DNA of 45,015 nt. It comes from Catajapyx aquilonaris. Its lineage: Eukaryota. How positions within the stretch are numbered: position 1 is the stretch's first letter; every line of letters starts with the position of its first letter. The notes beneath the pieces are model-generated. The model was given only the letters and a program-made list of their open reading frames with translations. It was not told the DNA's origin and did not search any database. Below, piece by piece: positions 6,401-41,396 of this stretch. The stretch spans positions 1 to 45,015 of the forward strand of contig KZ538842.1 of assembly GCA_000934665.2 (NCBI GenBank), written 5' to 3'. Both the position numbers and the translations under genes were made by a program.

Positions 6401-8449
6401 CTATGATAACAAAATAACACACCTGAAAAGGCGGCCTCCAGAAATTTCATGAGGGAGAGTGTGATCTCTCTCTGCATTGTCACCCTGAAAGCATTCTGCA
6501 GCTTCCTCAGCACGTGCCAACTTATGTTCCATCTCCACTGGATCAGGAGAAAACCAATTGCGTGAGTGTGTTTGCCACTGCTCATGTAGGGCCTGACACA
6601 GCTGTACCACTTTCTCCATCTCTTTCCTACGTACAAGAGAGATAAAGACATTTGTAAGTAAGCACAGTCCAACCAAGTGATACACAAACCTGATCTTGGC
6701 ACCCTTGATGCTCCCATTAATAAGTTCACTTGGAAAGCCATTTCGATACAGTATTTGCAACCTCTCTCTCAGTTGCAATAGGGGCTGGTTAAAATATGAC
6801 AGTTCTCTTCCCATTTCATCTCGTGCCTTAGACAGCCACTTTCCAGCCTCCACTGCCTCCCTACATGAAAAGTTATGTGAGTTTTTAATCCCTTTCCTTG
6901 TCATGCATCTTCTCACCTCAACCACATTCGAAGCTCGGCATTTTCAGAACTTAGGCTTTGCACTTGGTTTTGAAGATTGGCCAACTCAGAAGACATGCTT
7001 GTGGCACCCTCAAAGAGGAGCAGGTAGTGAGCACAAATATCGTGACCAAAGAGGGATGCCAATTCACGTGCCTTAAGCCCCATGTCATTCTGCAAAAAAA
7101 GGCACCACTTATCCATCATATAATTGCAGACAGAAAACAGGACAGAATTACCTTCAGAGCACCATTAACATCATGGTTAATAAGTAATTGACACGCCTTC
7201 ATGTTTCCTCCTCTAGCTGCTAGATGTAATGGTGTGTTGCCACCAATGTCCCTTTGCTCTAATTCAATCTCTCGCCTCTGCATCTCACCTATGAGCCACA
7301 CCATAATGCTCTCCTGAAATGCAGTTACAAATAAGAAACGCCTTTCAGTTTGATATGAATTAGCTCACCTGATTGTATTTGGCAGCATAATGCAATAGGC
7401 TCCTCTCTCCTTGCCGAGTTCCAAGACTCTCTTGAGCACCAGTGTGCTGCACCAACCACTGAAGGCAGCTCACTTGCCCAGCCTGCTCAAACAAGCAGAA
7501 ATGCTCACTTATCCTAATAACAATCTTCATGCAAAGGTCTGATCCTACCTTCACAGACAAAATAATGGGTGTGAGGCCAGCCTTATTTTCATCATGCAGG
7601 GCACCCTCAAGTTCTTGCCCACATACTGAACACAGCCAACTCAGTGCTTCTTGATGTCCATAAGTGCACAAAATGTGGAGGAGGTTGTTGCCACGATGGT
7701 CAGATAAGTTTCTCACCAGCGTTGATTCCATATCTCTCAGTGCTCCGCGCTGTAGGAGGCAAGACCAATTTGTTTTGCCTGTCATGGAATGTTCCACCCT
7801 TTCAAGAACTCACCAGCTTCTCTACATTTCCCTGCTTGGCAATCTCAAAAATCTGTTGAATCCATTCAGGTGTCTGTCGCCCTTCTTTAGGGCCACTGGT
7901 CCATAATTTGGATGGAGTAGGAGATGATGAGGAGGATGAGCAGGTAGTGGTAGTTGTAGCTGAAGAGGTGGGGATCTTTGGGAGTGGCCTTTGGGGGCGG
8001 GCTGGTAAAGGAGGAGGAATGGGACTTGCAGGCAGCATCTTTGGTGGGAAAAGCATCTCTCCTAAGAGACCTTCTAGAGCAGGGCGAGAGGGAGTAACTT
8101 CCTGTAACCAGGGTGGGCGTCGCCGACCACCACTTCTATCAGCTGCTAGCTCCCCGTCACTCACCGAACCACCCACTCCTCCACCTCCTCCCCATCTTCG
8201 TCCTCTTCCTCGTCTGCCACTTCGTACAGTAACCTGTGCTGTTTGTCCTGCTTGAGCCAGTTCACTTAGGGTTTCCAGTATGGAAACCGTACGCACCCCT
8301 GCTGCTGTAGCTTTGGCCACAGAAGGGAGGGGTGGAAGAGCTCCCCGTCCTGGCTGCTGCTGTTCAGTCTGTCCTTGCCATGGCATTCTTGCCCGACTGT
8401 GATCCATCTGACGACGACGACGTCCCCTCTCCTCAGATCCCTGTGCCAT
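6401..8449 (-). CDS. Ankyrin-repeat plus coiled-coil protein, synphilin-1-like architecture. Exons: ~8449-7814, 7749-7549, 7482-7369, 7313-7152, 7089-6917, 6860-6690, 6626-~6423/6401
   Basis: Ankyrin motifs GNNLLHILCTYGH, GLTPIILSVK, SLLHYAAKYNQ, GNTPLHLAARGG; six phase-compatible GT-AG introns of 55-66 nt; Pro/Ser-rich N-terminus; heptad-like LQNQVQSLSSENAELR. Start and last exon are uncertain. Confidence 0.85.
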
Positions 8450-9462
8450 TCCAAGAAATGAATGCATTAGAAGTGAAAACAATGGGAGAAGAAAAGAATG
8501 CCTCCTGATTACCTCCGTGATGTAGGCTCCATGCTTGAAATTATAGGCCAATGGAGATATGGGCTGGCCTCTTTTGTCTGCAGGGTTATGCCACTGCCTA
8601 GTACCATGGTCCACCTCTTCTGCAATGAATATGTTTGTTATCACCTAGTGCCAGTTACAGCAAATAAATCACAGAAGATTTATGTAATCTGTGATTGTGT
8701 TAAACAAAGCCCAACCTCAAAGAATTAAGTGCAAAATTGAGAGAGCTGTGTAGGCCTGCTACATTACTTTTGAGTCAGATGAAGTGAAAATAATGGACTC
8801 AGAATTCTCAATCTTGAAGTTAAAAGATTGCATATTGTTCCCAGGAATCAGGGGATTCCTCAAGTGCTAAATAATGTACATTAAATGAAGTCCTATTTTT
8901 CTGCCATGATTAATAACCTTGCCATCAACTACTGTAGAATGCCAAACTTCCTGCTGTCACCTTGTCGCACATGTAAGTTGACAACCAACATTCAAGTCAG
9001 GCTCCATGGTTCTTTAAGATGTGACCAAAATAATATAACTTTCCCTGGATTTCGTAAGTTTCAAAAACATTTTCTTACTGTGACCAGTAGTTTTAAATAG
9101 CAGTTCTATAGCATTACTCTTTGACTCCTTGTCAGTTGGAGAAACACCAGTCATCAATAGGCTCATATTACCAGCACACAATACAATAGAGTAAGTTATC
9201 AATTAACAGCACACCAGTTGAGAGATAAAACTGATTACAAGTGAAAACTTCACCATTTATTATGAAAGCAACAGTAACACAGTTTAAATTACAGTACCAT
9301 GCCATCTTTTGTAAGCCCAGTGAAGCCTACGGGGTCATTTACACAGCACCGAGGAAACCGAACCCGTTCAGGAACTGGCACAACAGTATATGGTTAATAC
9401 GGCAGTATTGCCAACACAAATTATAATTCACCTGAATTGAATTCCCGTCTATGTGGATAAAT

Positions 9463-11957: not shown

Positions 11958-12278
11958 CTATTTATTTATTTATTGTGCCCCGTGATGACCCTTACCACCA
12001 TTTTTCCTCAATTGTCCAAGTTAACTTCACTCAGGTGCAGGCAATCAAGGAGATTGGGTAAGGATAGGAATTTTCGGGGAGGGGACACGGGTGCAGGTCC
12101 AATGTCTCAAGTTTGGGCCATGTGCAGTCCCCCAGGAGGTTAGGTTGCCAGGCACATCCAAGGTGTGGGTCAGAGAACCTCCCGACGCAGGTGAAAGGGA
12201 ACTCCCAGGCGGGGATCGAACCTGGGACATTTCATTCAGCAAGCCGAGACGTTACCATCTCGGCCACCGTACCTCCCC
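11958..12278 (-). mobile_element. tRNA-derived SINE, family B copy 1
   Basis: Minus strand ggtggccgagatggtaac (A box), ggttcgatccc (B box), (AATA)n tail; homologous to 19322-19679 and 34103-34476. Confidence 0.85.
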
Positions 12279-13296
12279 ATAGCCTGATCATTATTAAATG
12301 CCTATTTTCGCAAACAAGGTTGGAGCAAAAAAAAAAAAAAAAACTGGGCCCCATTTACCAGTGCTCTAAATATTTGCATTTAAAAACTGACCTTTCCCAT
12401 CACTTCCTACAGCTCTTTAAGTTATAAAAAATTGCAAATGTAATATTTCGACCCATGTAATCTGTATCTCAGTGGATTCTCAGTTGAACCTCTAGCTATA
12501 ACGCTTTTTCATTCATACTATTATGTAAGCTATAGTAGGCTACATTCCCCCCGAAAAACTGACATGTCGAAGGAAAGTAGGCGTATCAGAGATTTCCATC
12601 CTTATTTGCTAGCATTCTTTCTTATTAGTTAGATGAGCACCCGAAATTCTTTGGCTATGAGACGGAAAACATGTTTGGCGTGACGTCTATTGTGACATGT
12701 GGCGACGGCATTGACAGAATGCCTACACAGAAATGTCCGCAATGCAAAGGAGAAACCTCCCATCCTACGTAAACACCATTTAAAAATGTTGATGAGGGAG
12801 AGAGGAGAGGGATAATATTCAAGTATGTTGAGAGCTTATAGAAAAATGAAAGTTATGCATCATCGCAATGCTGTATAATTATGCCTGAATTAAGCACGGA
12901 CTACACCGGACAACAAGATTGGGAAGTGATTCGCTAACGTGACTTCCCAGTGAATTTCTTCATAATTATCGCAATTTTTCCTACTTTTATTTACGAATAA
13001 ATATCACAAAAGGACAACAGCCTGCCTTCTGTAATAAAAAGGGTGAGTACCGGAACATTATTGCGCCACGTCGTAATGCATGAAGATACTTCCAACCCGC
13101 TATAAAATATGATCGCCCGAGGCCCGACAACAGTACCCGAAGTCCTTACGTTGGCCATTCGTCGGCGGACTTACGGTGCGACGATTGTTCCGTTTTCCCC
13201 AAGTCTTTCGAGCACCTGGAGGCGGTCAACTTCAAGGCCAGAATCGCCGACCAGAAGAGTCCTTTTCAATCTCCGCACCATCTTACCCACCCCCCG

Positions 13297-13326: not shown

Positions 13327-16300
13327 GCTTGAAAGGCACTCACCCCCACCCTTACCCCACCTGAGTCCCCTTACCCCCATGGCCACCCCATCCAACCTCC
13401 ACTCCACCTGCAAATCATCCGCCACATTCCGCACCCGGCTTCTGGAATTACGCCCCGCCGCCCTGCATACCAAGCACCCACAACGTTGCCAATGCTTACC
13501 CCTACCAATTGTGGGTGTGGAATGCACACATGCTGATAGTTTGGAAAATGCTAATATTTTGGGCTTTAATTTTTTAAATTTTTTATTTTTGCGAGCGTAA
13601 TCACCAGTTTGGAATTTTTATATGCTAGTTCAGTATTGACCACTTCCTGAACTTGTACTTGTTGATACTTCAAATGTAATTTTTTTTTTAAATGCAGGAA
13701 TTAAATGTGCACTGAAGCAGTGGCCCTGAAAAATCAAAACGTAACTAGTGTGAATGGGTTTACATAAGGGCACAATCTGCTGAAATGTTTCACACAAAAT
13801 TTTGTCAATGCAAATGACGCCCCCATACATTTAACATGTTTATATTTGGCTTCAATTTTCTGCCAATATTATATTGAAAAACATGATTGGCGTAATAAGA
13901 CAAGCTGACACAGGTTCCCAGCTTATATTGAAAATATTAGATAAAAAAATTATACCGCTTATCTTATGAGGTCATCTGACAACCCCTATTTTCAACGTTG
14001 GATTTTCACCTGTCAGCGTAAGTCGGGCACTAACTACTAATCTGGCTCGGGTTATCATTTGCGTGCTGACCTTCTATTACAAGTACACCCAATAACTTAT
14101 TCCTGTTGATCACATACTACCGGTAGACTTTACAACGAGTTTCTAGTGACGTGTCACTTATTCCAGAAGCGATGTTACAGCTACTGCCTGATTTATATTA
14201 CTGTACAAATTCAATACACTTCGGTAGCTTTCTCATACAGATGGAGAACGTATAGCTTATCAAATTAGGGCAAGTCAAACTGGCTCAACTTCACGTAGCA
14301 GGCCGCATGACGTCAGGATTAACCCCAGCATTTCCCTCTGTGGGAAACGCTCATGGAACACTGTATCACGAGACAATCCTTTCAAAGATTAAGCACGAAC
14401 CAGTTATTATTCATTCAAGACAACTACATACACTGCATGTTTAATCTCTCATCCGATATTAGCTTTGAGTTCTGATTATTTTATATAGAAAAATTGCGGC
14501 GACTAAATTCCCGTGTACTGTAAACACCAATGTCCCTGAAAGATGAGCGACTCTTCCGGGTGGCCAATACACTGCCATACCGTACTCATCATGTTCGCCA
14601 CAAGGAAGTGGGCCATCAGCAAAACCGAACTTGAGGAGCCCCACCTCCCATAAACTCCAGGTAAATGTTCCTACATACCGTAGGCAGACTGTCCTCCAGC
14701 TGCATGGCTGAGGCAGCTGCAGCTGCTGCCACAAGAAGCCAGTCTTTCCCGAAGAAAATGTGCGCCCAACTGCTCTCTCACCTCATCTTTCCCTGGCCCT
14801 CTGGCTCGCTTTGCTTGCTAGGTTACCTGCCTCAGCGGCCACTTCACCACATTCCCAAAACTCCATGCGTAGTTGCCAACTTTTTTATCAGCCTCGTTAC
14901 GCCTGGTATTGCGTGCTGTACACAATACATACCCCCCCTTTTTGTTTCCAAAGATTGTCTCCGGGCCGGTCATTTTACGGCTCATTGTTTGGTCGAGATT
15001 GCTTAATTGCCTGGCACTATGGATGTCCATTCCTTTGGGAAAAAAAATTGTCAGTGTATCAGGCGGTACAAAAATGTAGAGTAATCAGCACCAGTCACCG
15101 ACGTATTGTCATGGTTGATCCCACCTCAGCAATTAGTTTATGGCCTTTTATGGTCGAGGTGCACAACCGCAAAGGGGATGCCGCCCTTCCAGCTGACATA
15201 ATCGGCATTCCTGGTCCCGCGTGACCAAAAAAGACGGCAACGTGGACAAGCACGTGGTAAGCGCCCCCCCCCCCCNCCCCTCCTCCTCCTCATGATCCAT
15301 CGCCCCACCTTTTACCCCAGAACCCAAAAGCTGGAACCGCCGACCCCGGGCTCAAGGAACCTACCCGGCCCCAGCCTGCGGCGCCTCTTTCCTACCTCAT
15401 ACCTCACTGACTGGAATGTGCCGCGCTAATGCTGCATTGCCACATATCGCCACTAGTGGTCAATGATATTTTATTCCAGGGGGAAGGTGGGGAGGTGGGG
15501 GGTCCGGGTATGGTCGAGGAGTTGCAGTTGTGGTCCTGGAATAGCATTGTGGTACTCACTTGGCAGCCTCCGAGGGATGACCGTCTCCAGGTCATACTCT
15601 TCCGCCTCATCCGGGTTCACCTGTCAACAATGGACCACATCATGTTCAGAGCCGTTTTTCATGCCGTAATAAGCGTGCCACGCCGTACATATCAACGTTT
15701 CGGTGTGGCCTAACGTATCGGACAATACGCATAGATTATGTTACGGATGGGGGTTTGATGTCAGAAGGGTGGTATTGCATTCCAAAAGCGTTAGTATGGG
15801 CAAGTAATGTGGAAAAAACATGCGCATGGAATTAATCTGGCGTCAACTATGCACACAATGTGTTTGTGTCATACATATTCCATAATTATTTTCATCAACA
15901 ATATTTGAGGCGTTTGGTATGGTGTCAAGTGGAGTGACTATGTCATTGTTTGTGGTCAACACATTTCCTCACTCGTTACGTGCGACCGAGAAAAACAAGG
16001 CTTTACATATTTCGCTAGTGTCATGAATTTTTTGAAAATAATGTAAGAAGCCATGTAATCTTATATATTTTCAAACCCTCACACCAGTAAAATGTAACTG
16101 ATTTCGATCTACTTCGTACCAGATCTGTAAGATGTCTCAGCCCGCCTTGATCGTAAAAGTCACAATTGAAAATTTATATTCTAATACTTTTTATTGTTCT
16201 TCAATGTATTATTTGTATCATAAAACAAATCCTGGTGAGAACTTTCAGATAAATTACACATTAGAAATTAATTCCAATGATATCACAATTAAAACACAAA

Positions 16301-19321: not shown

Positions 19322-19679
19322 ATTTTTTTAAAAAATGTTAAAAACCCTGTGATAGGGCCATGGGCACTCTTACGGGGGTGGAACACCAACATATTTCCGT
19401 TCAGTTTTTCTGAGATTTTCTTGGAACACCATGCAGGGATGAAAGGATATAGGGTAGGGATGGGGATTTCTGGGGAGGGGACACAGGTGAGGTGCAATGT
19501 CGTTGCTGTGGGCCATGTGCAGTCCCCCAGGAGGTTAGGTTGCCATACACCTCCAAGGTGCAGGTGAGAGACCCTCCCGACACAGGTGAAAGGGAACTCC
19601 CAGGTGGGGATCGAACCTGGGCCCTTTCACTCAGCAAGCCGAGACTTTACCATCTCGGCTACCACCACCACACCTCCCC
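19322..19679 (-). mobile_element. tRNA-derived SINE, family B copy 2
   Basis: Homology to 11958-12278; flanking tgtggaagRcc duplication. Confidence 0.85.
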
Positions 19680-27475: not shown

Positions 27476-27916
27476 TACCTCAGGTGCACCCTCCACAAGC
27501 CTGTTTATGCACTGTAGGTGCATTAACAGGCTTGTACCAATAAATTTCTCACAGTATATTAAAGAAATTCAATCCTCAACTTCATATATTTTTTAATCCC
27601 GTATGTTTTTATCCTCACCTTATCTATTTTTACGGGATGCAACTCCTCAACCTGAAATGACTGGAGATTTAGCCATAAACTAAGCAACAGAACTCAAATC
27701 ACAAAATACCTCATCTTTACCTTCTTCATGAGACCTTTTTCCTTTTCCACATCATTCCACATGATGGGTCTTAGGACTAACTCACTCAAAACCCAAGTTC
27801 ATTTACTGCTCGTGATTTCCCTTCTTTGAAGCTTCGCCCTGTAGGAAAAGGAAAAAAGAAATTATAATAGCAGGTTGTGGACCAGCACCATTTGGCTATG
27901 AAATATGGCGCTACAT

Positions 27917-28058
27917 CAAGGGGTTAGCAACTCCCTGGAACCGGTGAACACTGGCCCTGGAACCAGGTGGAACCAGCTTGGAACCGGCCTGGAACCAGCT
28001 GGAACCTCCCGGTTCCAGGATCTGGTGTACACTTTTTTGGGGAGTTGCTAAACCCTTG
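27917..28058. mobile_element. Small hAT-type MITE with internal TGGAACC repeats
   Basis: caaggggttagcaactccc ... gggagttgctaaacccttg; TSD cgctacat/ggctacat (7 of 8). Confidence 0.8.
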
Positions 28059-28430
28059 GGCTACATGTGGATGAGCTTAGCATCATATACTGTATATGCA
28101 AAACATTTAAAAATTGAGTTATGAGATGTGTGTAGTAATCCACCCATTGCACAGTGCCGCAGATTACAAAAAAGGTGGACAAAAATGGAAATACTTACTT
28201 GATAACCTTGAAATTTTTTTACTAAGGGTTTCCATGTCGCTGATTTCAAATCTAGTGACAAAATTATAAAATTCAGCATGGCAGATTCAATATGGCGAAC
28301 AGGTGTCAGGTGTGACTATTTTTCGGCTCTGACGGAAAATATGCAGGAAGGGGATGAGAGTGAAAGTAATTTGTTAAAAAATGAATGAATTTGTAACTCT
28401 GAGAACAGTACCCAGCATTTCTTGAACAAA

Positions 28431-28509
28431 TGAAGGGTCGCCCCGAATAATGTTGTAAGTGTATGTTGTAACCAATGTCACTTACAACATTATTCGGGGC
28501 AACCCTTCA
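28431..28509. repeat. Small palindromic element inside the Transib
   Basis: tgaagggtcgccccgaataatgttgtaagtg ... cacttacaacattattcggggcaacccttca. Confidence 0.85.
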
Positions 28510-28614
28510 AATAGTAGCCTATAAACTAACATTTTCCTTGTATTACGAAGCATTATTTCATACTGTTGAAATACTGCACATGTAAAGGATTATAACAATT
28601 ATAAAATTGTGATG

Positions 28615-29238
28615 TCATTTGGCCTCAATCATTAATGATAAGGCTTCATCTCCCGAGAGAGGTGTCACTTTCGCACTCCCCAAGCATCTCTGGTATGCCT
28701 GACGAATATTTTTGGCCCTTTTTGGAGTAGTCATTGTTGCCTCTTTTACAAATTTAGCGGCATCTTCGTTTCCTGCTTGACGCAGCTTCATTTGCGCAGC
28801 ATAAGTCACTTCTGGGGTGGTTGTAGTTCTGCGGAGTTCTTCTGTCTCCCTCCTCTTTGATCGGTTACTACTCTCTGCAAAGTCTCTGCTGGGACGACCA
28901 CATCTAGCCTCTTGCGTACCATGGCCTGACTTCTGCGCTTTTTCCGGAAGTGTGACTTCCCCCTCTAGCCATGTTCCACATTTTTCCACAAAATAGCTTG
29001 CATTCCTAGTAGAAGATTGCCATTTCTTTTGGAACTTGCTGCAAAATCTAGAGAGTTCTACCTTAATTGTTTTAACCATGGCGTCATAGCCTTCAGCTTC
29101 CGGATCAGGGTCTACCAACTGCATCACTTTCTCTTCCAAAAATGCACGCTGATTGGCGTTGCTGGGTGTCTGCCTCATGATTTCAAATACTCCCCTTTTC
29201 ATAAGTGACAACCCTAATATACGTATAAAAATAGTCAA
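28615..29238 (-). pseudogene. Truncated Transib (RAG1-core-related) transposase, N-terminal DNA-binding region only
   Basis: GRPSRDFAESSNRSKRRETEELR...YAAQMKLRQAGNEDAAK...TPKRAKNIR...LSGDEALSLMIEAK; stops before the catalytic DDE region. Confidence 0.85.
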
Positions 29239-29877
29239 ACGTCGTAGTCAGTATTCCATGTCATGGAAATCGCTTGTTTTCAGGGTTAATGATAAGGACC
29301 TGGCTGTGTGTGTGTGTGTGGGGNGGGGGGGGGGTTCATGTATGCATCAATATCTCACAACCTAGCGGTTTTTAGCAACCAAACTGTCCACCATTAGTAC
29401 GTAATTCTCTCAAATTATCTCAAAGGGGATTTGGGGGGATTTTTAAATAACTCCAATTAATACCAATCATTCACAGTGACTTGAGCAACGACAAAAGTTT
29501 AGAATTTGACATCATTGTGACGTCACTATTTTGATGCCTCAAAATCTTCAGTATGGGTTTAAATTGTAGATCTAACCTTTCTTCGAAGTATCCATTATGA
29601 AAACTTAGCCTCCGATCCCTTCCGCAAGAGCAATGACCTCCACACTGCCACTTTCCCTCTGAGACTGAGTGCAGGTGGGACCGATTTCCTTCAGTGATTC
29701 ACCCATTGCAGGCAGTTTGCCAAGTCATGGCGTCATCCATGGTTTACTTATAGCGCACTTTTATTGCCCCAAAGAATAGGGAACACAATGCACTGTGTTT
29801 CCTGTTAATTGAAGCAATGTGAAAATGTGATTTTTGTCCGGCTCTTTTGCAATCCGTGGCACTGTGCATTGGCAGGT

Positions 29878-30120
29878 AATATGAATACCCCATGATAGGC
29901 CTAATTGGGCCTTTTATGGGACAGTCTTTTCATTTACCAGTTTTTTTCATTGCCTGCGGTGTGATGGATTTGGCTTGTGGGAGAAAACCCACGTGAACAT
30001 GGAGAGAACCCATCAAAACTCTATCCACCTTTTTCATCTATCCATCCTGTCCAATCCAGGGATCGAACTCGGGACCTCAGAGGTGGAAGGGTGTAGCCCT
30101 AACCGCTACACCAGTGGGCC
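29878..30120 (-). mobile_element. tRNA-derived SINE, V-like family copy 2
   Basis: Minus strand gagttcgatccc, ggatagagttttgatgggttctctc; homologous to 25600-25928. Confidence 0.85.
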
Positions 30121-30164
30121 CATCAAACATTTAAATAAAATTATTGCTGGTTCCCAAAGCCTTA

Positions 30165-30615
30165 TGGCCGGTATCGACGTGCGAGTTCATCGTATACAAG
30201 TCCTCTTACACGAGAAATCTTGAACGTCGAGACGGAATCTGCTACGCCTCGCAAGAGGGATACGAGAAATGTTGGAAAATTTCAACTTTCTGCCCAAGCC
30301 TCGTACCACCTCGAACATAGGTCACTTGACTCCCGATAGCCAATCTGGTAAGTGATTTCGCCAGACTCACTCTGGGCGCGACGCGGTATCTGTCTCTTGA
30401 CTCTCCCTCCCTTGGTGCTTGGCCCCTCTCTCAAGTCTCACCTCCCCGCCTTCTTCCTGCCATTGCCCACCGGCTTGCCACTAGCGCCATCTTACCCGAG
30501 CCCGGTTGGGAGGGCATGAAATTTTATCTCGTGTCTCACAGTGTCGCGAAGGCCCTGCGCGGACATGCGCAGTAGGTGTCTCGCATACGAGGAACTCGCA
30601 CGTTGATACCGGCCG
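30165..30615. mobile_element. PIF/Harbinger-type MITE
   Basis: TTA|tggccggtatcgacgtgcgagttc ... gaactcgcacgttgataccggccg|TTA. Confidence 0.8.
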
Positions 30616-30942
30616 TTACACTGCCAATATAAACGTCAAAAAATTTAAACATTCTGACCACTATATCTTCAACTAAGTTCCATCTAACTGCTCAATACTT
30701 CCGGCTGAAAGGCATATCAATGATAAACAAGCCATGGCCTACTTTACTGAATTTAAAGATTCAAAATATAACAGATGCCCTTCAAATTGTTGACACACAA
30801 AGACTGACAACTTCATTGCATTTTGTGTTAACATTTCAACACTGCCCACACATAAAGCAAGTTGAACAACTGAAAAGTAATTTTTAACAAGTATTCTTGG
30901 GTCCACCAAAAAATGAAGCTTAAATATTTTGTCTGCCTAGAG

Positions 30943-31476
30943 CAGTGGTTCCCAACCTGAAGGGTTTTCTAGGGGGTTGAGAAGGAAGTTTTTACATTAA
31001 CAAACACTCAGCTGTGAAGGTAAGTATGTGAGTATGTGTTATGAAGTTATGAAATATAGATTTCCTTTTCTTTACCCTATAAAGATGCATTTTTAAGCAA
31101 ATTGGGGTGGGGGTGGGAGAGGGGGGTCGCAGGTTACTTGGCTATTATAAAAGGGGGTCCGGCGGCATGGTGGTCTAGCGGTTATGCCGCTGGCCTGCCA
31201 AGCGGGAGGCCGGGGTTCAAATCCCGTCCCCGTCACCTCTGCTTGGCTGGGTCTTTTTCCGCTTTTCACCCGACATGCCGGAGCAGAATTGCACTCCCTT
31301 CTCTGCTCGGGGCCAGGAGAAAAGGCCTGGTGTTTAAAAATTGTCAGAAATGGCTATCGCATGGCGCCCTCCCTTGGGAACTTCCCCTTCCCCCCGAAGA
31401 GAGCCACGAACTCTATCACGGGGTAACAAGAAGAGGGGGGGGGGGGTCACGACTTGAAAAAGGTTGGGAACCACTG
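30943..31476. mobile_element. hAT Charlie-type MITE containing a SINE
   Basis: TIR cagtggttcccaacct / aggttgggaaccactg; perfect 8-bp TSD GCCTAGAG. Confidence 0.92.
31155..31430 (+). mobile_element. tRNA-Gly(GCC)-derived SINE
   Basis: gcatggtggtctagcggt...gcctgccaagcgggaggccggggttcaaatccc resembles tRNA-Gly-GCC; ends in the shared tail ...ctatcacggggta. Confidence 0.75.
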
Positions 31477-31758
31477 GCCTAGAGAAGACATATTTCCGTT
31501 ACAATTTTTAAAATGACGCTAGGCGAGATAAAATGCAATCCTCTCAGCAAGTCGATAAGAATGAGACACAATCAGCATTATTATTTTATAGAGATGGAAT
31601 AGGAGAACTGGAATTAATAACTGGATATTAATAATATGGGAAAAGTACCACCAACATGTGAAAGAGAGGTCAGTTGCACTTTCACAGAAAAAATTTCGGT
31701 TCTGGTGTTGTTAGTTAGCGAGAATTTTACTGCCAAATTCTCTTTGTCCCATCCTTAA

Positions 31759-32557
31759 CCCCTTCGGCCCCAGATCGGCCCGAACCACACAGTTTTTGGC
31801 TTATGCGTACTCCGAAGATACGGACAAGATATTTTGCAAATAATAACAGCTATACTTACGAGATCTGGGAAAACCCTATGAATGTGTCTGGAACCATTTT
31901 ACTCGTCTAGAAGTCCCTAAATTAATTTCCAAAAAGGGGCTATAATAACTCGAAATTGGACTACTGCCGCCCAACTTTTAGGCTGATTTGATTATGAAAT
32001 GCGTGAAAATATGCGGAATAACAACCACGAGAACCATGCCAGACGAATTTGCTGAAATCGTCGTACTTTGCGAGAAATAAATTAATATTTATTTGTGGCT
32101 TTCTAGCACTTAGGAAAACTCCTAAATGAGTATGAGGTGAATTTTCTGAAATCGTCGTACTTCATGAGAAACAAATAAATTTGGGAGTTTTCCGAAGTTT
32201 TCCGAAGTGCCAGAAAGCAGCAAATAAGTATTAATTTATTTCTCGCAAAGGACGACGATTTCAGCAAATTCCTCTGGTATGGTTCTCAAAGTTGTTATTC
32301 CGCATATTTTCACGCATTTCATAATCAAATCAGCCTAAAAGTTGGGCGGAAGTAGTCCAATTTCGAGTTATTATAGCCCTTTTATGGAAATTAATTTAGG
32401 GACTTCTAGACGAGTAAAATGGTTCCAGACACATTCATAGGGATTTCCCAGATCTCGTAAGTATAGCTGTTATTATTTGCAAAATATCTTGTACGTATCT
32501 TCGGAGTACGCGTAAGCGGAAAACTGTGTGGTTCGAGCCGATCTGGGGCCGAAGGGG
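31759..32557. mobile_element. piggyBac-type foldback element, ~360-bp arms
   Basis: TTAA|ccccttcggccccagatcgg ... ccgatctggggccgaagggg|TTAA; the arms match almost to the centre. Confidence 0.92.
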
Positions 32558-32953
32558 TTAATGGTCACTATCTGGAGCACAAAACTCGCATTCCAAACCA
32601 AGCCCACAACACCACTGCTATACCGCACAATTAACAACCCTAATTCAAGGGGTGCTTTTTTTCTCATTTGGAGACATCAACTAAAAAAGTAGTGACATGC
32701 AGTTCTTGACATGGAAGGGTCAATGTAAATACCTTTTCTGGATCCTTGTTCTTTTCCTCTTCATCTTCCTGAATACAAAATCTCCAGGGACGTGCATGCT
32801 CTTGCTGTACATTACCACCCTTTTTATTTGCATCCTTTAAAATGTAAGGTGATTGATTTATAAATATGGTGGAAAATGACAACCAACCTAGTCACACTAA
32901 TACCTTATACTTCAATCACAAATCAAATCATTATTTTGTCAGTTATAGCTACA

Positions 32954-33994
32954 CAGGGGCTAGACAAAATAATAGGAACACCTACAAAAAGCGGTTGAAA
33001 CTTAGTGCCTGTTTTATTTGAAAACTGGAAAAGTTACAAAGATTACTTTTACCGGATTTTGAAGCTGAACAATGGACACTAGTCGAGGTATGCAAATGAC
33101 CAAATAATCACGAGAGGGGGAGAGAAACAAAAGACGAACGATACCCCCCCCCATACCCCATTTTTGACCCAAGTGTTCTAGGTTCATCATTTGAAAACGA
33201 AATTAGTTACCAACATGGACTTCACTGGGTTTTGAAACTCTATCGATTTCACTTTGTGAGGTATACAAATGGACCAATAATCACACGAGGGGCGGGGAAA
33301 AAAAAGAGAAACGACACCCCCGCCTTACGGGCACTGCTTTATAGAATATTAGTAATATTTAATCAGAAAACCAAAACTGCTGCAGAAATCATCTGTATTG
33401 GGTTTTGAAGCTCTATTTATGTCACTTTGTGGTATACAGATGGCTAACAAATCTGATATTTTGTCCAACACATAATACAATCATCCTAAAAAATCAGTGC
33501 CGGGGGTGGGGGGTATTGTTTCTTTTTTCCCCCGCCACCCTCATTGGCCCATATGTATATCTCACAAAGTTACATCGATGGGGTGGGGGTGTCGTACGTC
33601 ATTTTGTTTCTCTCCCACTCCCGTGCTTTTGCGTCATCTGCATACCTACACAAATGTACCCCTGCGAGCATAAAGATGGAGACGGCAGGCCCTTTTTTGA
33701 CCTTTCTTTATCCGACTCAAATTAATTAACTATTTTTGGACCGAGTTTGCTGCTTCAGGCATGTATTCGTGTATTTATGACAGTATATTTGATACCGTAA
33801 TTGCTGAGATTGACAGAGCAGCCTGCCGAAGGTGAGGGCCTGCCGTCTCCATCTTTATGCTCGCGGGTGTACATCAACATAGCTTCAAAACCCGGTAAAA
33901 GTTATCTATGTAGCTTTTCAAGTTATCGAATAAAGCAGGGGCTAAGTTTCAACTGCTCTTTGCAGGTGTTCCTATTTATTTTGTCTAACCCCTG
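32954..33994. mobile_element. Tc1-type non-autonomous element with a nested inverted-repeat element (~33657-33872)
   Basis: caggggctagacaaaataataggaacacct ... aggtgttcctatttattttgtctaacccctg|TA; inner gcgagcataaagatggagacggcaggccc and its reverse complement; a related right end sits at ~36410-36574. Confidence 0.8.
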
Positions 33995-34102
33995 TACGTG
34001 TCATTAACACACAGCCAAAGTTTCATCAATAGACCATCTTCCAATCCTGTTTGAAACAATCATTACAATGAAGAACACAATCAGAACTTCACCTATAGTT
34101 TT

Positions 34103-34476
34103 TTTGTGGGTTGTAGTTGTTGTTGTTGTTTTGTTTTTTTTACCCCATTGGAGGGAACGAAGCCCTTTTAGGGGGGTGGATTACCACCATTTGAATAATT
34201 TTCAGTATTTTCTTCGGACTCCGTGCAAGGACAATGAGGGAAATAGGGTAAGGATGGGGGGATTTGGGAGGGGACACTGGTGCAAGTGCAATGTCTGAAA
34301 AGGGTCATGTGCAGTCCCCCAGGAGGCCGGTTGCCAAGACGCATCTTTAGGCGCGGGCCAGAGATCCACTGACGCAGACGAAAGGTAACTCCCGGGCGGC
34401 AATTAGAACCCGGGACCTTTCGCACAGCAAGCCGAGATGTTACCATCTCGGCCACCGCACCTTCCCCACCTCATCT
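34103..34476 (-). mobile_element. tRNA-derived SINE, family B-related copy 3
   Basis: Same head ggtggccgagatggtaacatctcggcttgctg; TSD ctatagttt; (CAA)n tail. Confidence 0.85.
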
Positions 34477-34704
34477 ATAGTTTGTTCAGCTAAAGAATGC
34501 AATGATGTCACTTTCTCTAACAATGAATGACACGCAGGTTGCCTGAAAACTCATTCTGATGGGAATTGTGGGTGGGGGTCATTATTATGAGAAAAAGTGA
34601 TGTCATGGCATTCTTCGCTGAACCAACTATAATCATGAAAATGATGTCCTGTGAGGACAGTCCTATAAACTTCAAAATTCACATACAAAATATTTCAGTC
34701 TTAC

Positions 34705-37700
34705 CTCCACTCGTGTTTCATTTAGTAAAACCTGCAGATAGCTTTCAAGGTTCTCAATTTCTGCAGGTTCACTGCTTGGGCAGCCAACACTTTCTTCTTC
34801 TGAATAATATATATTGACACTGCCAATGTCTGCATGCACTCCACTTGTCTCACCACCATCTCTGCCCTTATCCACCTTATCCAACTTCCTGGAGTCATCA
34901 CGTTCTGATACCTGGCTCTCCAAACTCATGGCTGATTGATTATCATTCACTTTGGCTATCTCCTTCCCTCCCTTCACCTGCCTGCCACTGCTTTCTTCTG
35001 TGCTCTGGGTGAAAACAACAGAATTACAGAGAGATAAAATCATTCTTCCCTTCATCCATGCTCATAAAACAGTTATCTACTCACCAGCTCATCATTTGGA
35101 AGCTCTTCCAACAAGGCAAGGAGGTGTTTATCCATGTCTTCTAATTCAGAAGTGCCCTTATCTGCCTTCGGCCTCCTACACCTCTTGCTTCTCTTGTTTC
35201 GTGGAAAGCTTGCCCCCTTTTCTTCACTGGTTCGCCTCTTTGCACCCTCCAGGCATGGCAAATTGGCAGCTCCACCTGGTTTATCCTCCACAGTCTTCAT
35301 TCCCATCTTACAAGCAGGTACATTATCAGTCTTTCTTTCTTTATCTGAGATATTATTCTTTTCAATTTTCTTTTTCTTTTTCCTAGTTGTTCCTCCTTGC
35401 TTTTCTTCTGTATGCATCTTTTCCTTCTTCCCTTCCCTCTTGTTGGTTCCTCTTCCTTCTTTAGCTTCCCTATTTGTCTTTTTCTTCTGCTTCCTTTTGG
35501 TAGTTGTTCCTTCTTGATTAGCCCCCTTCTTCCTTCCTTTTTTCTTTGATGGTAAGTCAGCATTTCTGCCTTTGCCACTCTCGCACTCCTCATGTGCAGG
35601 GTTCTTTGAGTTCTGGGTATCGATGGTGTTGCTTGGAGCACTTTCCTCATGCACACTGGCACACAGTTCTTCTTGAGCATCTTTGCATGCCAGAATATTG
35701 TGTGCCTTCTGCTCTTCATAAGCTGGAACAAATGTAACAAAATTACCTGTTGGTCATTGCAGACAGGGTATTTTGCATGTTATGAACAGTCCTTCAGGTA
35801 ACTTTTTTAAAGATTATGCTTTGAAAGAAAAGCTCAAACTTACACTTATATCTATGTAAGAAATAAATACAGGGTGTTTCAGAGTCACGGGTCAAGCGCA
35901 CGCAAGGGGGTGGGGAAAAATCGTAGTTGGCAACTACCCGGGTCAGTTTTATTAAACAATTAGAAATACGGCAGTAATCAATTTATTTGTTACGGCCGTA
36001 CGGCGTGACGTCACATCCTACTTTCTGTTCGAACTGAGTGGCGCGGAGTGGCAAATGCAAGGCAATTGCATTGGGTGGAACCTGCATGAACGGGTTTTTA
36101 GCCTTGCGGGCTGCACTGAAAAAGGCGCTCTCATGCTACACCGGTAGAGTACTGTTCATGCAGGTTCCACCCAATGCAATTGCTTTGCATTTGCCACTCC
36201 GCGCCACTCAGTTCGAACAGAAAGTAAGATGTGACGTCACGCCTTATGGCCGTAATAAATTGATTACTGACATATTTCTAATTGTTTTATAAAACCGACC
36301 CGGGTAGTTGCCACCTACGATTTTTCCCCACCCCCCTCGCGTGCGCTTGACCTGTGACTCTGAAACACCCTGTATATGTCATTAAATAAGCTAATTTAGA
36401 TTTTTCCACACTCCTCCTCTCATGCTTTTTGCGTCATTTGCATCCCTGCACACTTTGACAGTGCTTCAAAACCTGGTAAAAGTCATCTTTGTAACTTATC
36501 AAGTTTTCGAATAAAATAGATGTGAAGTTTCAACGGCTTTTTGCAGGTGTTCCTATTATTTTGTCCAACCCCCGTACCTAATCAGTGCGACGTTTGCGCC
36601 TGTTTCAAGTCACATAATTTTTGGATTCGCCCCCCCTCCCCCCTTGCCCCCCCTTCGTGCCCCATCGGTTGAAAACAGATGGTATACACATACAGTCACC
36701 CCTCTGTTGCATCACACAAACATCCTCACACTTACCTGCTGAGTCAAAAGCCAATATTGTTAGATATGGAACATGGATGCAAGGCGTCCTCCTCCTTAAC
36801 GAGACTTCTACATTCTTCACAAATAAGACCTGGGCAGTCGAGTATACTTGATAGGATTGCAGCTCACACTGTATGGATAGAGAATAATACACTAAATGTG
36901 TTACTTCTCTGATGTAAGGCCTTATGGGCACTATAAGTAAACCAAACACTCACACTTTTCAATTACACATTACATTTCATTACACACAGAACTAAAAGTG
37001 AATTTCCTACAAAACAATCACTGAAAATGCAGATGTACTAACCTTCATTCGCACTATATCACCTGGTCCCCACCTTGGGACAGTATTATCCATCACTAGG
37101 TCAAATAAATTCATGGTGAATTTAGTTAGATTCGGTGGCAGCTGCCTTTTCTGGAAATAAATAATTTGCAGGATGACACAGACTCTACTGGGGTCTGGGG
37201 TCAAGTACAAGTATGATATCAAAAGGTATCTAAGTTGTGTTTCAGATAAGTCATGTGATTTTTTGTGCTTATAGAAATTGTACTGTACTGTATAAAATAT
37301 ATTGTACATACTCCACAGAAATTGACAGCTGGTGAACATCCCATTGCAGAGGAAGGAAGGATACACTGTGCCAGAAGAAAACATGCTAACTTGGTTTTCA
37401 CATTCCTCCTCTGTCACCTTTTAGTGAGATTCCTTTGTACTTTACCATCCTTTCCACTTGCCCATTGGATGTGGGTTAGTAGGAAGGTAGAAGAGAGGTT
37501 GCAGGATGAGGGAGAAGAACAGATCAGACACATCCGAGGTGTCAGATCTGGTTCAGAGTTAAGAAGGTTTGAAATACCTCAGAGGTAAAGCCGGATCTAA
37601 GAGCTTAAACCATGGGCTCGAGGATTCCATGGGGAAAGGCATCACAACTCTGATATGATACATTTGGCTGTCAAAACTGACACACACAACCTCTAACCAC

Positions 37701-37726
37701 TTGAAGTAGGCATCTATCACCAGAAG

Positions 37727-37787
<61 letters not shown>

Positions 37788-38180
37788 TCATGCCCCGTTA
37801 TCAGCCTATCGGCTCTTTAGGGGGGAAGTTTTTTTGTTTTGCCTGGAACAAGAATCACAGCTCAAAATCAAACATTTAGCAGCATCGTAATTAAAAAACG
37901 CATGTCTTGTACCAGCAGTTTTCTTTTCACATTCTGAAATGCTATCTTTATGAACTACTTTCCAGTTACATGATACACCTTCAACCCGCAAGCAATGGAT
38001 AGTAAAAGCATTAACCCATGTACAGCAGCCAGTCCGCCCTGATACCCAAAACCCGATAGTAGTCGAACTTCATACCTTAGCTAACTCCTCCAAAGCGTCT
38101 TGCAGTGCATGACCGACAGTCGTGTGGCGGTACATCTCCACCACATTCAACAGGGTAGGAGCAATGCTTCTCTCGGGCAT
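34705..38180 (-). CDS. Divergent TFIIA gamma-subunit-like protein with a long C-terminal extension. Exons 38180-38076, 37150-37043, 36868-36736, 35722-35085, 35004-34705 (at least 428 aa; 3' end unresolved)
   Basis: Spliced N-terminus MYRHTTVGHALQDALEELAK|KRQLPPNLTKFTMNLFDLVMDNTVPRWGPGDIVRMK|CELQSYQVYSTAQVLFVKNVEV...VPYLTILAFDSA is colinear with TFIIA-gamma ([29 protein letters not shown]..|[29 protein letters not shown]); all introns GT-AG and phase-compatible (0,0,1,0). Confidence 0.8.
35870..36372. mobile_element. Tc1/mariner-type foldback MITE, ~220-bp arms, in intron 3 of the TFIIA-gamma-like gene
   Basis: TA|cagggtgtttcagagtcacgggtcaagcgcacgc ... gcgtgcgcttgacctgtgactctgaaacaccctg|TA. 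Confidence 0.92.
37730..37850 (-). mobile_element. 5'-truncated retroposon 3' tail with (TTA)n microsatellite
   Basis: Minus strand gttccaggcaaaac..cttcccccctaaagagccgataggctgataacggggcatg + (TTA)~19; matches 24355-24425. Confidence 0.8.
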
Positions 38181-38645
38181 TTTCAATGCCGCTGGAGACC
38201 TCAGTTTGTCTACTTAGATGACCCAAGCTCCAGACATGTGCAGACCATGCCCAACCGTCGAAGAACGACGTTCCATGCTCGAGGCTCGCTACTATCGCTA
38301 GCGATCGCTAGCATCGGCGATCATCAAATCCGTTCAGAAAATCCTTATAAAGCGAAGCTCAGCATATGACGTCATGTATATCGGCGTGGGATCAAGGAAA
38401 TGTGTATGGAAAGAAGCGGGCGCTGAAACCACAATGACCATTTCCTAAACTAGTAATTACTGACCTCACCCATTGTTAGTCTAATTTACATAAAGAATTT
38501 GTTAATCATACTTTTATTTGTTCTGCAATTTTTACTACCTAATGAACATAATATTTGCAAATAGTTGGTTAAAAAGCTCGAAAATAAATTAGCGGTGACG
38601 TCACGTGTGAATCTGACGCTTTGAGTCAGGAGTTGAGATTCCAGC
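38181..38645. promoter_or_regulatory. Candidate bidirectional promoter with two CRE palindromes and an overlapping E-box
   Basis: 465 bp between divergent ATGs; TGACGTCA at 38367-38374 and 38596-38603, CACGTG at 38602-38607; CpG-rich and free of recognisable TEs. Confidence 0.55.
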
Positions 38646-39537
38646 ATGGCGGAAGCTCGGGAGGACGAGCGGATTGCAATTGCCAGTGGAAGCAGGAACC
38701 TGAAGACTTATGGCAGCACTAGCAAGTATCAGAAAAAGCGTGAATGCTTTCTCAAACACCGGGTGCAAGAAGATGACACGTTGCAAGGGATAGCGCTTAA
38801 GTATGGAGTCACTGTAAGTTGTCCCCCCCCACATTCCAATTTGTTATAGCTGCTTGTCAATGACTGTTGATATTGGTCTGACAGATGGAACAGATCCGGA
38901 GGGTGAACAAGTTGTGGGCCAATGACAGCTTGTTTCTCCGGGAATACCTGCTTGTGCCAGTGCCCACTGACTTTCTTTCAAGTGCGGTGCCGCAGGATTT
39001 GGAGATACAGTTGGTGTCGCCGTCAAGTGAGGAGAACTCTCCGAATGGGCACTGGAGCGGTGGTGGATCGGAGAGTGAACAGGAGCTGGCAGCCGCAGAA
39101 CCATGTGAGAGTCAACGAGCAGAGCGCAGTGCCTCTTTGCCGACACGGTGTTCGTCAGAACCGATGGGTGACAGATCGGAACAGAGTGTTGTGGACTACT
39201 TGGTGAAAATGGATAGCGCTATTGCCAAAACGAGGAGGAGAGTGGAAAAAATGGAGAAGAAGCAATTGTTGAGTATTATGTTTGTTTTTAGTTTGAGGAA
39301 ATGTGGAGTTTTTATTGCATTGTTAGTTGTGAGGTAGCATATTATTCAAGCAAACACTTTGATTTCAGGCCAAGTGAACAAGAGAATAGTACATTTTACC
39401 AGTGTCGACCCCTGCCATACTCATCTGGAGGTCAAGTGTCTCAGGAGCCCAATCTTGTTGTCATGACACAAGGCCGCAGAGTACAAACGTCACTTCGCCA
39501 ACATGAAAAACGTCAAGAGGAGATGTTTGAATTGTAG
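38646..39537 (+). CDS. LysM domain protein, LYSMD1/LYSMD2 family (~239 aa). Exons 38646-38813, 38885-39267, 39369-39537
   Basis: LKTYGST...HRVQEDDTLQGIALKYGVT|MEQIRRVNKLWANDSLFLREYLLVP LysM; DYLVKMDSAI helix; C-terminal EEMFEL; phase-compatible introns (the second donor, GTTGAG, is weak). Confidence 0.92.
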
Positions 39538-41396
39538 CACCTCCTGGAGGTATTCAAACTTTAATTCAGATTTCCTTACTTGAAATTTCACTCAGAATCA
39601 CTCAGTTTCAAACCTGCCATTTCTTGGTTCTGTGATCCAGAAATCCTACACTAGTCTTTTCTTTTCAGGGTGTGGCAGGGTCCAACTTTTAAGATGTCAC
39701 CTAGTCAAAACCAAATGTACTCCTGATGCAAAGTTACCGCATGATGCTTGGAAATTGCTGTGAACTATCAATACTGACGGGTGTCTATTACGAAGAGGAA
39801 AAACACAATGAATATATGCAGTTGTCGGTTTTCGGGTGGTTTCGTATCCTAATTTGCAGTGAATGGTTGTAAGAGATCCTACTCATTATTTTGCAAGTTG
39901 TGAGTAACTGCAGGGATACAGGAATGTTATCACATGGTATTTACTTCCGGAAATGGCTTGCCTTGGTGTGAGTTTCTTCCACAATATATTGTTCTTGTTT
40001 GTTTTACCCTGATAGTTTGACATTAAGTGAGTGTACCTGGCGCTAATATTAGGTTTATATGCAGAGTTATCGAGACAGTGTACGTACCTCTACATATCAT
40101 GACTTTTGTTCTAATTCTTATCACATAAATATGCTTTTTGTTGTAATCTTTCAAGAAAGGTAGTCTCTTTTGGTGACTTCTTTGGCGCCAGTGTGACATT
40201 GGCATTCACTGACTGTTTTGCACTAGAAGCAGTGTTAGCAAGCATTAGTAGAATGTTCTGGTGATCTTCAGTGAAGAGTCATCTTCTAGACAAGACAGTG
40301 AGGGACACGTGTAGGAATCTTACCTTACACTTGTAGCCATTTGTACACTAATGCTAGCTCAGAAGTGCCATTACATGTAACAAGTTCAAGATTGTATATC
40401 TGGCATTGTTAACTCTTGGCTTGTGATAAAAAACAAGTTAGCAATATTGGCATTGAAAAAATAGTGGAGTTGTCATATATGTGAGGATATCTTGTTCACA
40501 AAGCCTTGCAATGCCCACTCTACTGTGACAGTTTGAAAAATGTATATACAGAAGTAAGTGTGAGATACAGAGGCCAAATGTTTGTCTTCTGCACAAGCTT
40601 GCCACAAGGTCACAGCTGTGATGTTGCTGATGAAATACTCGGATCTGCTCCCAGTGGATTCCAATATTTTGTGGGATTCTTTCTATGAAGGCTTGCTGTT
40701 TTGGTAAAAACAACTTGTCTATTATGTTATTTTACAGTTTTTGCATTATTAGATTTTGTCCAGAAATTCTGTTTGTATCTGTAACTTAACTGGTTTGACT
40801 ATCAGTCGCACTGGTGATCTTGGATGCAAATCCTGGGAGGGATTAATATTTCTACCCTCCCTTAATCTTTCTGAAGTTCATGATCTGTAGTAACCTTCAC
40901 TTTTTGTTTACCAGTTTATTATTTTTAGGCATGTTGGGTGCAAAGCAGCATAAAATTGCTACTGCTCAGGGAAGTCAAGTTGTTTGGTCCAGATTGGATT
41001 TAGTTTGATGAATAAGCTGGAATCATAAAGGAATGGAGTGTTTATTCCCATAGGCAAGCATAACGTGTTAATGCTTGTTTCTCTCAATAGCTACATTTAT
41101 TCAGGTATTGTGTTGAAAAATTGTTCTCAAATAAAGCCCAATGTTGAACCCATTGCTCTTTTCAATTTCATATTATTCATAAAGATGGTCGTACAGAATA
41201 TGCCACAGGAAAATGAATGGGATTCATTATGCTCTTGATAATTTTCAGGTTTGTTGCTTGGTACATGTCGGAATTTTTGTGCATTTGGAATGTAACCACC
41301 ACCGTTATGAAGTGAGTAATAGTTTCTGTGAATCCAGACCCAAACTTACCAGCAGTCAATGTTCAGTGTAACAGTTGCCTACTCTGTCATAATTTT

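Follow-up and report, generated by a model that had tools for sequence, protein, structure and literature searches.

Few proteins of the RNA polymerase II machinery are as conserved as TFIIA-gamma, the small subunit of TFIIA. In a 45,015-nt stretch of the Catajapyx aquilonaris genome (assembly GCA_000934665.2, contig KZ538842.1, positions 1 to 45,015; hereafter the window), an initial annotation made from the DNA letters proposed that three short exons on the minus strand splice into a highly diverged TFIIA-gamma domain and continue into a long tail. Is this locus transcribed as one gene, is it related to TFIIA-gamma over the whole domain, and is its protein maintained or decaying? The evidence presented here leads us to regard it as probably a transcribed, protein-coding and very diverged TFIIA-gamma paralog, which arose by duplication at the DNA level and in which the short last exon was replaced by two tail exons.

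A five-exon gene and its transcript

On the minus strand, the locus has the following structure, in which profile positions refer to the canonical TFIIA-gamma profile introduced in the next section.

38181..38248, minus strand: 5′ untranslated region (UTR), minimum extent, reaching to the 5′ end of the RNA contig at 38248
38076..38180, minus strand: coding part of exon 1, 35 codons from the ATG at 38180; a 13-residue lead, then helix 1 of the helical domain (profile positions 2-23)
37151..38075, minus strand: intron 1, 925 nt, phase 0, GT..AG
37043..37150, minus strand: exon 2, 36 codons; remaining helical domain and linker (profile 24-58)
36869..37042, minus strand: intron 2, 174 nt, phase 0, GT..AG
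36736..36868, minus strand: exon 3, 44 codons and 1 nt; corresponds to the beta-barrel half, TFIIA_gamma_C (profile 59-100)
35723..36735, minus strand: intron 3, 1013 nt, phase 1, GT..AG
35085..35722, minus strand: exon 4, 638 nt; a codon split with the base from exon 3, then 212 full codons; a predicted helix immediately following the domain, a disordered block rich in lysine with basic runs resembling a nuclear localization signal (NLS), and a second helix
35005..35084, minus strand: intron 4, 80 nt, phase 0, GT..AG
34672..35004, minus strand: coding part of exon 5, 110 codons; acidic, mostly disordered, one weak predicted helix near the end
34569..34671, minus strand: 3′ UTR, minimum extent, reaching to the 3′ end of the RNA contig

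All five exons are spanned in spliced form by one 1488-nt contig (depth 18.8, 0 mismatches) of X1, a single sample and the only public run that contains this stretch, the contigs of which were examined over 27500-39600. The contig aligns in the segments 38248-38076, 37150-37043, 36868-36736, 35722-35085 and 35004-34569, and its four joints all read CT..AC on the plus strand, i.e., GT..AG on the strand of the gene. The junctions proposed initially (38076/37150, 37043/36868 and 36736/35722) are all present in it, exon 3 thus being joined to exon 4 in RNA, and the joint across the 80-nt intron (35085/35004) is carried by the same contig. Because the X1 contigs lack introns in two neighbouring genes, this one and one that encodes a LysM domain, the run can be taken as RNA-derived in fact, and a retrocopy in the DNA is an unlikely source of the intron-less contig.

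Re-reading the minus strand bore out the exon coordinates, frames and splice sites of the initial annotation. The five pieces as first described make up 1284 nt, a stop-free frame of 428 codons, all introns being GT..AG. The contig does not splice at 34705 (GT at 34704), where those pieces end, but reads through to 34569. The frame then closes ten codons later at a TGA (34674-34672), giving a 438-codon frame and a 438-aa product. The tail, put at 312 or more codons before, is therefore long as proposed but not open-ended, with 322 full codons after the split alanine codon, 323 residues in all, before the TGA. The 5′ UTR contains two short upstream open reading frames (uORFs), one from an out-of-frame ATG at 38248 and one from an in-frame ATG at 38237 with its stop at 38216-38214. 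Downstream of the stop codon, AATAAA first occurs at 33980, at a distance of 694 nt and beyond a repeat resembling a short interspersed nuclear element (SINE).

Relationship to TFIIA-gamma

Exon 1 alone matched the Pfam family TFIIA_gamma_N (PF02268) with an E-value of 1.4e-7 and 31.9 bits, residues 15-34 aligning to profile positions 3-22 of 47, and its best matches in the PDB were the human and yeast TFIIA small subunits (E 0.066-0.54). For a comparison beyond exon 1, a back-translated canonical motif was scanned over metagenome contigs, yielding 116 loci, all of which carry the exact motif by construction of the search. At 47 of them the gene or cDNA runs uninterrupted over its full length; 41 of these sequences are distinct, all with both Pfam domains, and they form our home-built canonical profile of 101 positions. 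Since its sequences were chosen for an exact YRFCDNVW, the profile is a conservative test for exon 3.

The joined N-terminal 116 residues scored 41.0-41.2 bits against this profile over positions 2-99 of 101. Piece by piece the scores were 21.6 bits for exon 1, 8.4 for exons 2 and 3 together, 4.9 for exon 3 and 1.0 for exon 2, and joined exons 1 and 2 reached 38.7 bits against a profile of the N-terminal half (positions 3-45 of 58). In context, exon 2 adds approximately 15 bits and exon 3 approximately 9 bits. In a series of controls the real exon 1 was kept in front, and the scores compare as follows with the real 41.2 bits.

Exons 2 and 3 both shuffled: mean 21.5, maximum 33.1 bits; 0 of 5000 reach the real score
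Exon 3 only shuffled: mean 32.5, maximum 39.3 bits; 0 of 5000 reach the real score
Exon 2 only shuffled: mean 26.5, maximum 40.3 bits; 0 of 5000 reach the real score
Exon 2 replaced by a real open reading frame (ORF) fragment of the window: mean 26.4, maximum 41.1 bits; 0 of 3000
Exon 3 replaced by a real window ORF fragment: mean 32.2, maximum 37.2 bits; 0 of 3000
Both replaced by real window ORF fragments: mean 21.2, maximum 30.7 bits; 0 of 3000

Shuffled exon 3 by itself equalled the real 4.9 bits in 9 of 5000 trials. Aligned with hhalign against an alignment of canonical sequences (A1), both exons found their colinear places, exon 2 with P 0.019 and exon 3, on columns 79-99, with P 0.034. 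Pairwise phmmer comparisons with named vertebrate proteins gave 25-27 bits over residues 14-115.

The Pfam match of exon 1, the joined-profile score and the controls, none of which reached that score, uphold the initial claim that the spliced exons are related to TFIIA-gamma; homology over the whole domain, beyond chance, is supported by these sequence comparisons. As to the further claim of a complete domain, the alignment is indeed colinear over the full length, but exon 3 by itself is recognised neither by TFIIA_gamma_C (PF02751, gathering cut-off 27 bits), although it covers the whole of that domain (canonical residues 58-99), nor by any PDB sequence. What supports exon 3 is the in-context profile tests and the intron positions, and nothing else. 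A search of the ESM Atlas with exon 3 returned a best score of 0.78, which is noise, and no second TFIIA-gamma-like copy was detected among the 1950 ORF pieces of the 45-kb window.

Intron sites shared with canonical genes

In the canonical loci, introns were placed by the best-scoring GT/AG pair on the profile, and the last one by the DNA after the last conserved lysine. Three sites matter here.

Intron A: profile 23/24, phase 0; six canonical loci (L023, L026, L050, L066, L071, L098)
Intron B: profile 58/59, phase 0; 24 canonical loci
Intron C: 1 nt after position 100, phase 1; 16 canonical loci with genomic signs

All three occur together in L023, L026, L050 and L066. The first three junctions of the Catajapyx gene fall exactly at A, B and C, in position and phase alike. 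This coincidence independently supports the identification of exons 2 and 3 as counterparts of canonical exons, and, since three positions and phases match, it points to a DNA-level duplicate of an animal-type, intron-bearing gene and not to a retrocopy, as had been proposed. The initial annotation placed the same introns in human GTF2A2; the comparison made here is with loci on metagenome contigs, not with the human gene. Canonical genes of other lineages carry introns at 15/16, 38/39, 41/42 or 49/50 (L010, L012, L016, L044, L078, L093 and others), and the 58/59 intron is very widely shared, plant-like loci included.

Divergence and loss of the TBP-contact strand

Over up to 98 columns, the encoded protein shows 19-30% identity with the canonical loci and the named canonical proteins. 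The canonical sequences in alignment A1 are 44-83% identical to its first member, and named proteins of animals, plants, fungi and an amoeba show 44-86% identity to the first query sequence. The divergence differs between the two halves of the domain. Among the columns conserved to at least 90%, the helical half keeps 7 of 12 residues (Y5, R6, G11, L14, L18, F39, D40), and the other five changes are conservative (L to M, D to E, A to T, L to M, L to V). In the barrel half, 5 of 20 such residues are retained (L61, Y64, I94, A96, D98).

HMMER aligns the sequence YQVYSTAQ of exon 3 onto canonical YRFCDNVW. According to PMC6499415, residues 67, 69, 71 and 73 of yeast TOA2 touch TBP in crystal structures, human residues 62-69 are the conserved counterpart of this stretch, and formation of the complex or binding to the promoter is impaired by the substitutions Y65A and N63A. 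At the four corresponding places (human 63, 65, 67 and 69) the Catajapyx protein has Q, Y, V and S, one of the four being unchanged. The conserved TBP-contact strand is thus missing from it, and the initial reading of YQVYSTAQ as the counterpart of YRFCDNVW, with the contact strand lost, agrees with both the alignment and the single contact position kept.

A maximum-likelihood tree was computed from 38 rows: the Catajapyx protein, 12 loci and 25 named database proteins (27 picked from 84 matches, two of them dropped for at least 30 gaps). The Catajapyx row has an end branch of approximately 10 changes per column vs a median of 0.18, with an unsettled bootstrap and no supported position; the tree serves solely to call the protein very diverged, and its use for dating or placing the duplication was rejected, as the row has no supported position. 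A random frame of 116 codons stays open approximately 0.4% of the time, (61/64)^116. At 19-30% identity, a 116-codon frame with three intact junctions would be unlikely to have lasted without selection.

A long C-terminal extension

The 323 residues that follow the domain contain 13.9% lysine and 13.3% glutamate, and with them the 438 codons depart from the small stand-alone size of TFIIA-gamma (approximately 100-125 residues). Residues 161-300 are strongly basic, with six runs of at least three K/R, and the last 140 residues form an acidic end. AlphaFold2 models from the single sequence had a mean predicted local distance difference test (pLDDT) score of 57.7 for the exon 4 piece, with helices at 2-25 (pLDDT 87-89) and 192-206, and of 49.1 for the exon 5 piece, with a weak helix at residues 84-97. 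These models suggest, no more than tentatively, three helices in a chain that otherwise lacks structure.

Exons 4 and 5 matched no Pfam family above noise. For exon 4, no relative was found among proteins of 372-2000 aa in a word-indexed database, and phmmer against 1.84 billion representatives gave 0 matches at E up to 0.001. A canonical alignment searched against long database proteins gave 84 matches with a TFIIA-gamma domain, none of them like the Catajapyx protein. Named long matches include canonical domains merged with neighbours such as BNIP2, WD40 proteins and glucan-water dikinase. P0056, P0064, P0066, P0067, P0083 and P0084 were considered as long-tailed relatives and rejected as unspliced or read-through models. 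One match, P0035 (468 aa, an ENA record), has a canonical TFIIA-gamma domain at residues 2-102, then a Gln-rich region and the large-subunit family PF03153; it is either a natural fusion of gamma with alpha/beta or a merged gene model. Word searches of open-access literature turned up variants of the large subunit, the gamma duplicates of rice and mere mentions of Drosophila TfIIA-S-2; they yielded no small-subunit paralog that combines a rewritten TBP strand with a long tail, which is not proof of absence.

Weighing the alternatives

Several observations count against a maintained coding paralog. The Pfam score of exon 1 is 1.1 bits under the gathering cut-off of 33, and the exon offers less than half of the domain; exons 2 and 3, searched singly, matched neither a Pfam family nor a PDB sequence at E up to 10; the hhalign probabilities for single exons are just 1.5-2.4%; and when the 1950 ORF pieces of the window were scanned, the ORF with exon 3 came third (5.5 bits, E 2.3) and that with exon 2 was not listed. 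The transcript evidence is a single contig from a single sample, and its 3′ end is not fixed, so that what lies unspliced beyond 34705 may represent intron retention. Exon 4 is purine-rich and open for 160 codons in another frame too, which makes its open frame weak evidence of coding. Database searches with exon 4 and with the 47-aa ORF containing exon 1 turned up no ortholog, the ORF having no relative in the size range of 84-2000 aa with E-values up to 10, and the gene may be of recent origin or on its way to being lost.

In one alternative view, the locus is an expressed but functionless relic, a decaying duplicate or young chimeric gene transcribed from a shared promoter with no selected protein function. 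The barrel half has lost 15 of its 20 conserved columns, the whole YRFCDNVW motif included, the end branch is that of approximately 10 vs a median of 0.18, the tail is of low complexity and without relatives in the databases searched, as is the gene without a detected ortholog, and two uORFs precede the start codon. Yet 438 codons form one open frame through four introns, all with canonical splice sites, and the loss is concentrated on one functional surface and not evenly spread, the helical half keeping 7 of 12 conserved columns with conservative changes at the other five. At 19-30% identity, one would expect a neutrally evolving sequence to have picked up stop codons or to have had its splice sites disrupted. 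The unbroken frame and junctions and the conservation pattern of so diverged a protein, taken together as an argument and not a measurement, lead us to consider a relic unlikely.

A read-through or chimeric transcript, in which exons 1-3 are a short TFIIA-gamma-like gene and exons 4-5 a separate downstream gene, would fit the fact that canonical genes end a few codons after intron C, and long TFIIA-gamma proteins in databases do include merged gene models, several of those inspected being unspliced read-throughs. The present transcript is different: one contig covers all five exons at an even depth of 18.8 with no alternative joint reported in the region, exon 4 opens at an acceptor in phase with exon 3 and not at a start codon, and no short terminal exon was seen in intron 3, though contigs drop rare variants. 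We therefore hold such a merger to be very improbable. Could the locus instead be the sole TFIIA-gamma gene of the organism, a canonical factor changed by the rapid evolution of its lineage? The 45-kb window contains no canonical copy, but the named animals, plants, fungi and amoeba keep 44-86% identity whereas this protein has 19-30% to all, and the neighbouring LysM and ankyrin-repeat genes look ordinary; there is next to no likelihood in this explanation. The reading that we retain as the probable one is that of an expressed, coding and very diverged paralog.

A possible role for the paralog

In canonical TFIIA, the helical half of the small subunit and the N-terminus of the large subunit together form a four-helix bundle. 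If the protein is made and nuclear, as we infer, its helical half, which keeps the invariant residues of the family, probably still pairs with TFIIA-alpha/beta or with a germline variant of the large subunit. The barrel half keeps a strand-like hydrophobic pattern and one of the four TBP contacts, and is probably unable to dock on TBP as canonical TFIIA-gamma does. The tail, with its helix, basic NLS-like block, second helix and acidic end, would direct nuclear import and provide a novel surface for interactions. Such a complex would either be a TFIIA variant directed to another partner or compete by withholding the large subunit from TBP.

A more specific proposal casts the protein as an adaptor derived from TFIIA-gamma, one that would pair with TFIIA-alpha/beta or an ALF-like protein through its conserved helical half, would have given up docking on TBP, and would use its tail to bring the TFIIA core to a non-TBP partner, driving or blocking special promoters, e.g., in the germline. 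In this full form we consider the proposal decidedly unlikely.

Putative promoter region, repeats and neighbouring genes

Upstream of the paralog lies a head-to-head neighbour.

38249..38646: intergenic region between the 5′ end of the RNA contig (38248) and the ATG of the LysM-domain gene (38647)
38647-39550, plus strand: LysM-domain gene, spliced in X1 at 38813/38885 and 39267/39369

The two 5′ ends are at most approximately 400 bp apart, which suggests that the region may serve as a bidirectional promoter. It contains the palindrome TGACGTCA, of the cAMP response element (CRE) type, at 38367-38374 and 38596-38603, the second copy overlapping a CACGTG box. Elements of the TGACGTCA type are typical of CREM-driven testis genes. 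The window holds eight copies vs 0.33 expected, and none of 100 shuffles reaches eight; the other six are at 14308, 22789, 29518, 36006, 36232 and 43197, two of them in the arms of a palindrome in intron 3. Just upstream of the 5′ end of the RNA contig, at 38286-38316, is a palindromic 9-nt tandem unit in 3.3 copies (Tandem Repeats Finder consensus TCGCTAGCGA).

Two of the introns contain repeats. Within intron 1 there is a perfect trinucleotide microsatellite of 19.7 copies (37729-37787). The palindrome in intron 3 is a nearly perfect 509-nt element resembling a miniature inverted-repeat transposable element (35867-36375), with nested arms that are 91-94% complementary and no second copy in the window. 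The SINE-like repeat just downstream of the stop codon (34100-34480) has a tRNA-like head and two diverged copies elsewhere in the window (12035-12279 and 19415-19663, 76-79% identity). RNA contig depth rises over the SINE-like repeats, and the contig of the gene breaks before the 34100-34480 copy.

Farther away on the same strand, ankyrin-repeat exons of a separate gene lie at 7119-7809 (Pfam Ank_2, E 5.4e-9; Ank, E 2.2e-7), followed by a weak match to the GIT coiled coil at 6916-7164 (E 9.8e-5, below the cut-off). A 280-aa open frame is present at 7805-8644, also on the minus strand. Between the ankyrin exons and the paralog, the second-longest frame on that strand (28618-29247, 210 aa) has no Pfam family and no cover in X1. 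A search with Rfam over the whole window gave 0 matches.

Comparison with known TFIIA variants

To our knowledge, the TFIIA variants studied so far fall into two kinds, those with a changed large subunit (ALF, Moonshiner) and small-subunit duplicates that are near-canonical. An expressed and spliced variant such as this one suggests specialised core transcription machinery, a function that we propose from its sequence. If our reading is true, the combination of a retained dimerisation half, a rewritten TBP-contact strand and a 323-residue tail would amount to a natural separation-of-function allele, could reveal roles of TFIIA beyond stabilising TBP on DNA and would constitute a new route for diversifying core promoter recognition. 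Such genes can escape domain scans, as just 20 residues of exon 1 are recognisable here without splicing.

The closest system is canonical TFIIA-gamma itself (GTF2A2, TOA2, TfIIA-S; PF02268 and PF02751), with which the protein is colinear over profile positions 2-99, shares the three introns of animal-type genes and keeps the invariant residues Y5, R6, G11, L14, L18, F39 and D40. Canonical proteins show approximately 45-80% identity between kingdoms, whereas the Catajapyx protein has 19-30%; they are approximately 100-125 aa long with YRFCDNVW, whereas it has 438 aa and YQVYSTAQ, and its third exon is not recognised by TFIIA_gamma_C. Drosophila TfIIA-S-2 is likewise a lineage-specific duplicate of the small subunit; unlike the protein described here, it is of about canonical length and close to the canonical sequence.

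In other variants of TFIIA, redirected complexes go to TRF2 or heterochromatin readers and not to TBP at ordinary promoters. Moonshiner, together with ALF/TFIIA-tau (GTF2A1L; for ALF see PMC5006001), resembles our case by analogy only, in that a paralog of a basal factor retains the surface for dimerisation and sends the complex elsewhere. Both are germline paralogs of the large subunit, whereas the gene described here derives from the small one.

Both copies of rice TFIIAgamma are canonical in length and motif. The plant duplicates have no added tail, and the plant-like loci among those fetched keep YRFCDNVW, by construction of the search. Like the Catajapyx gene, rice TFIIAgamma1 and TFIIAgamma5-xa5 (PMC2887407) are small-subunit copies that arose by DNA-level duplication, were kept and diverge in their roles.

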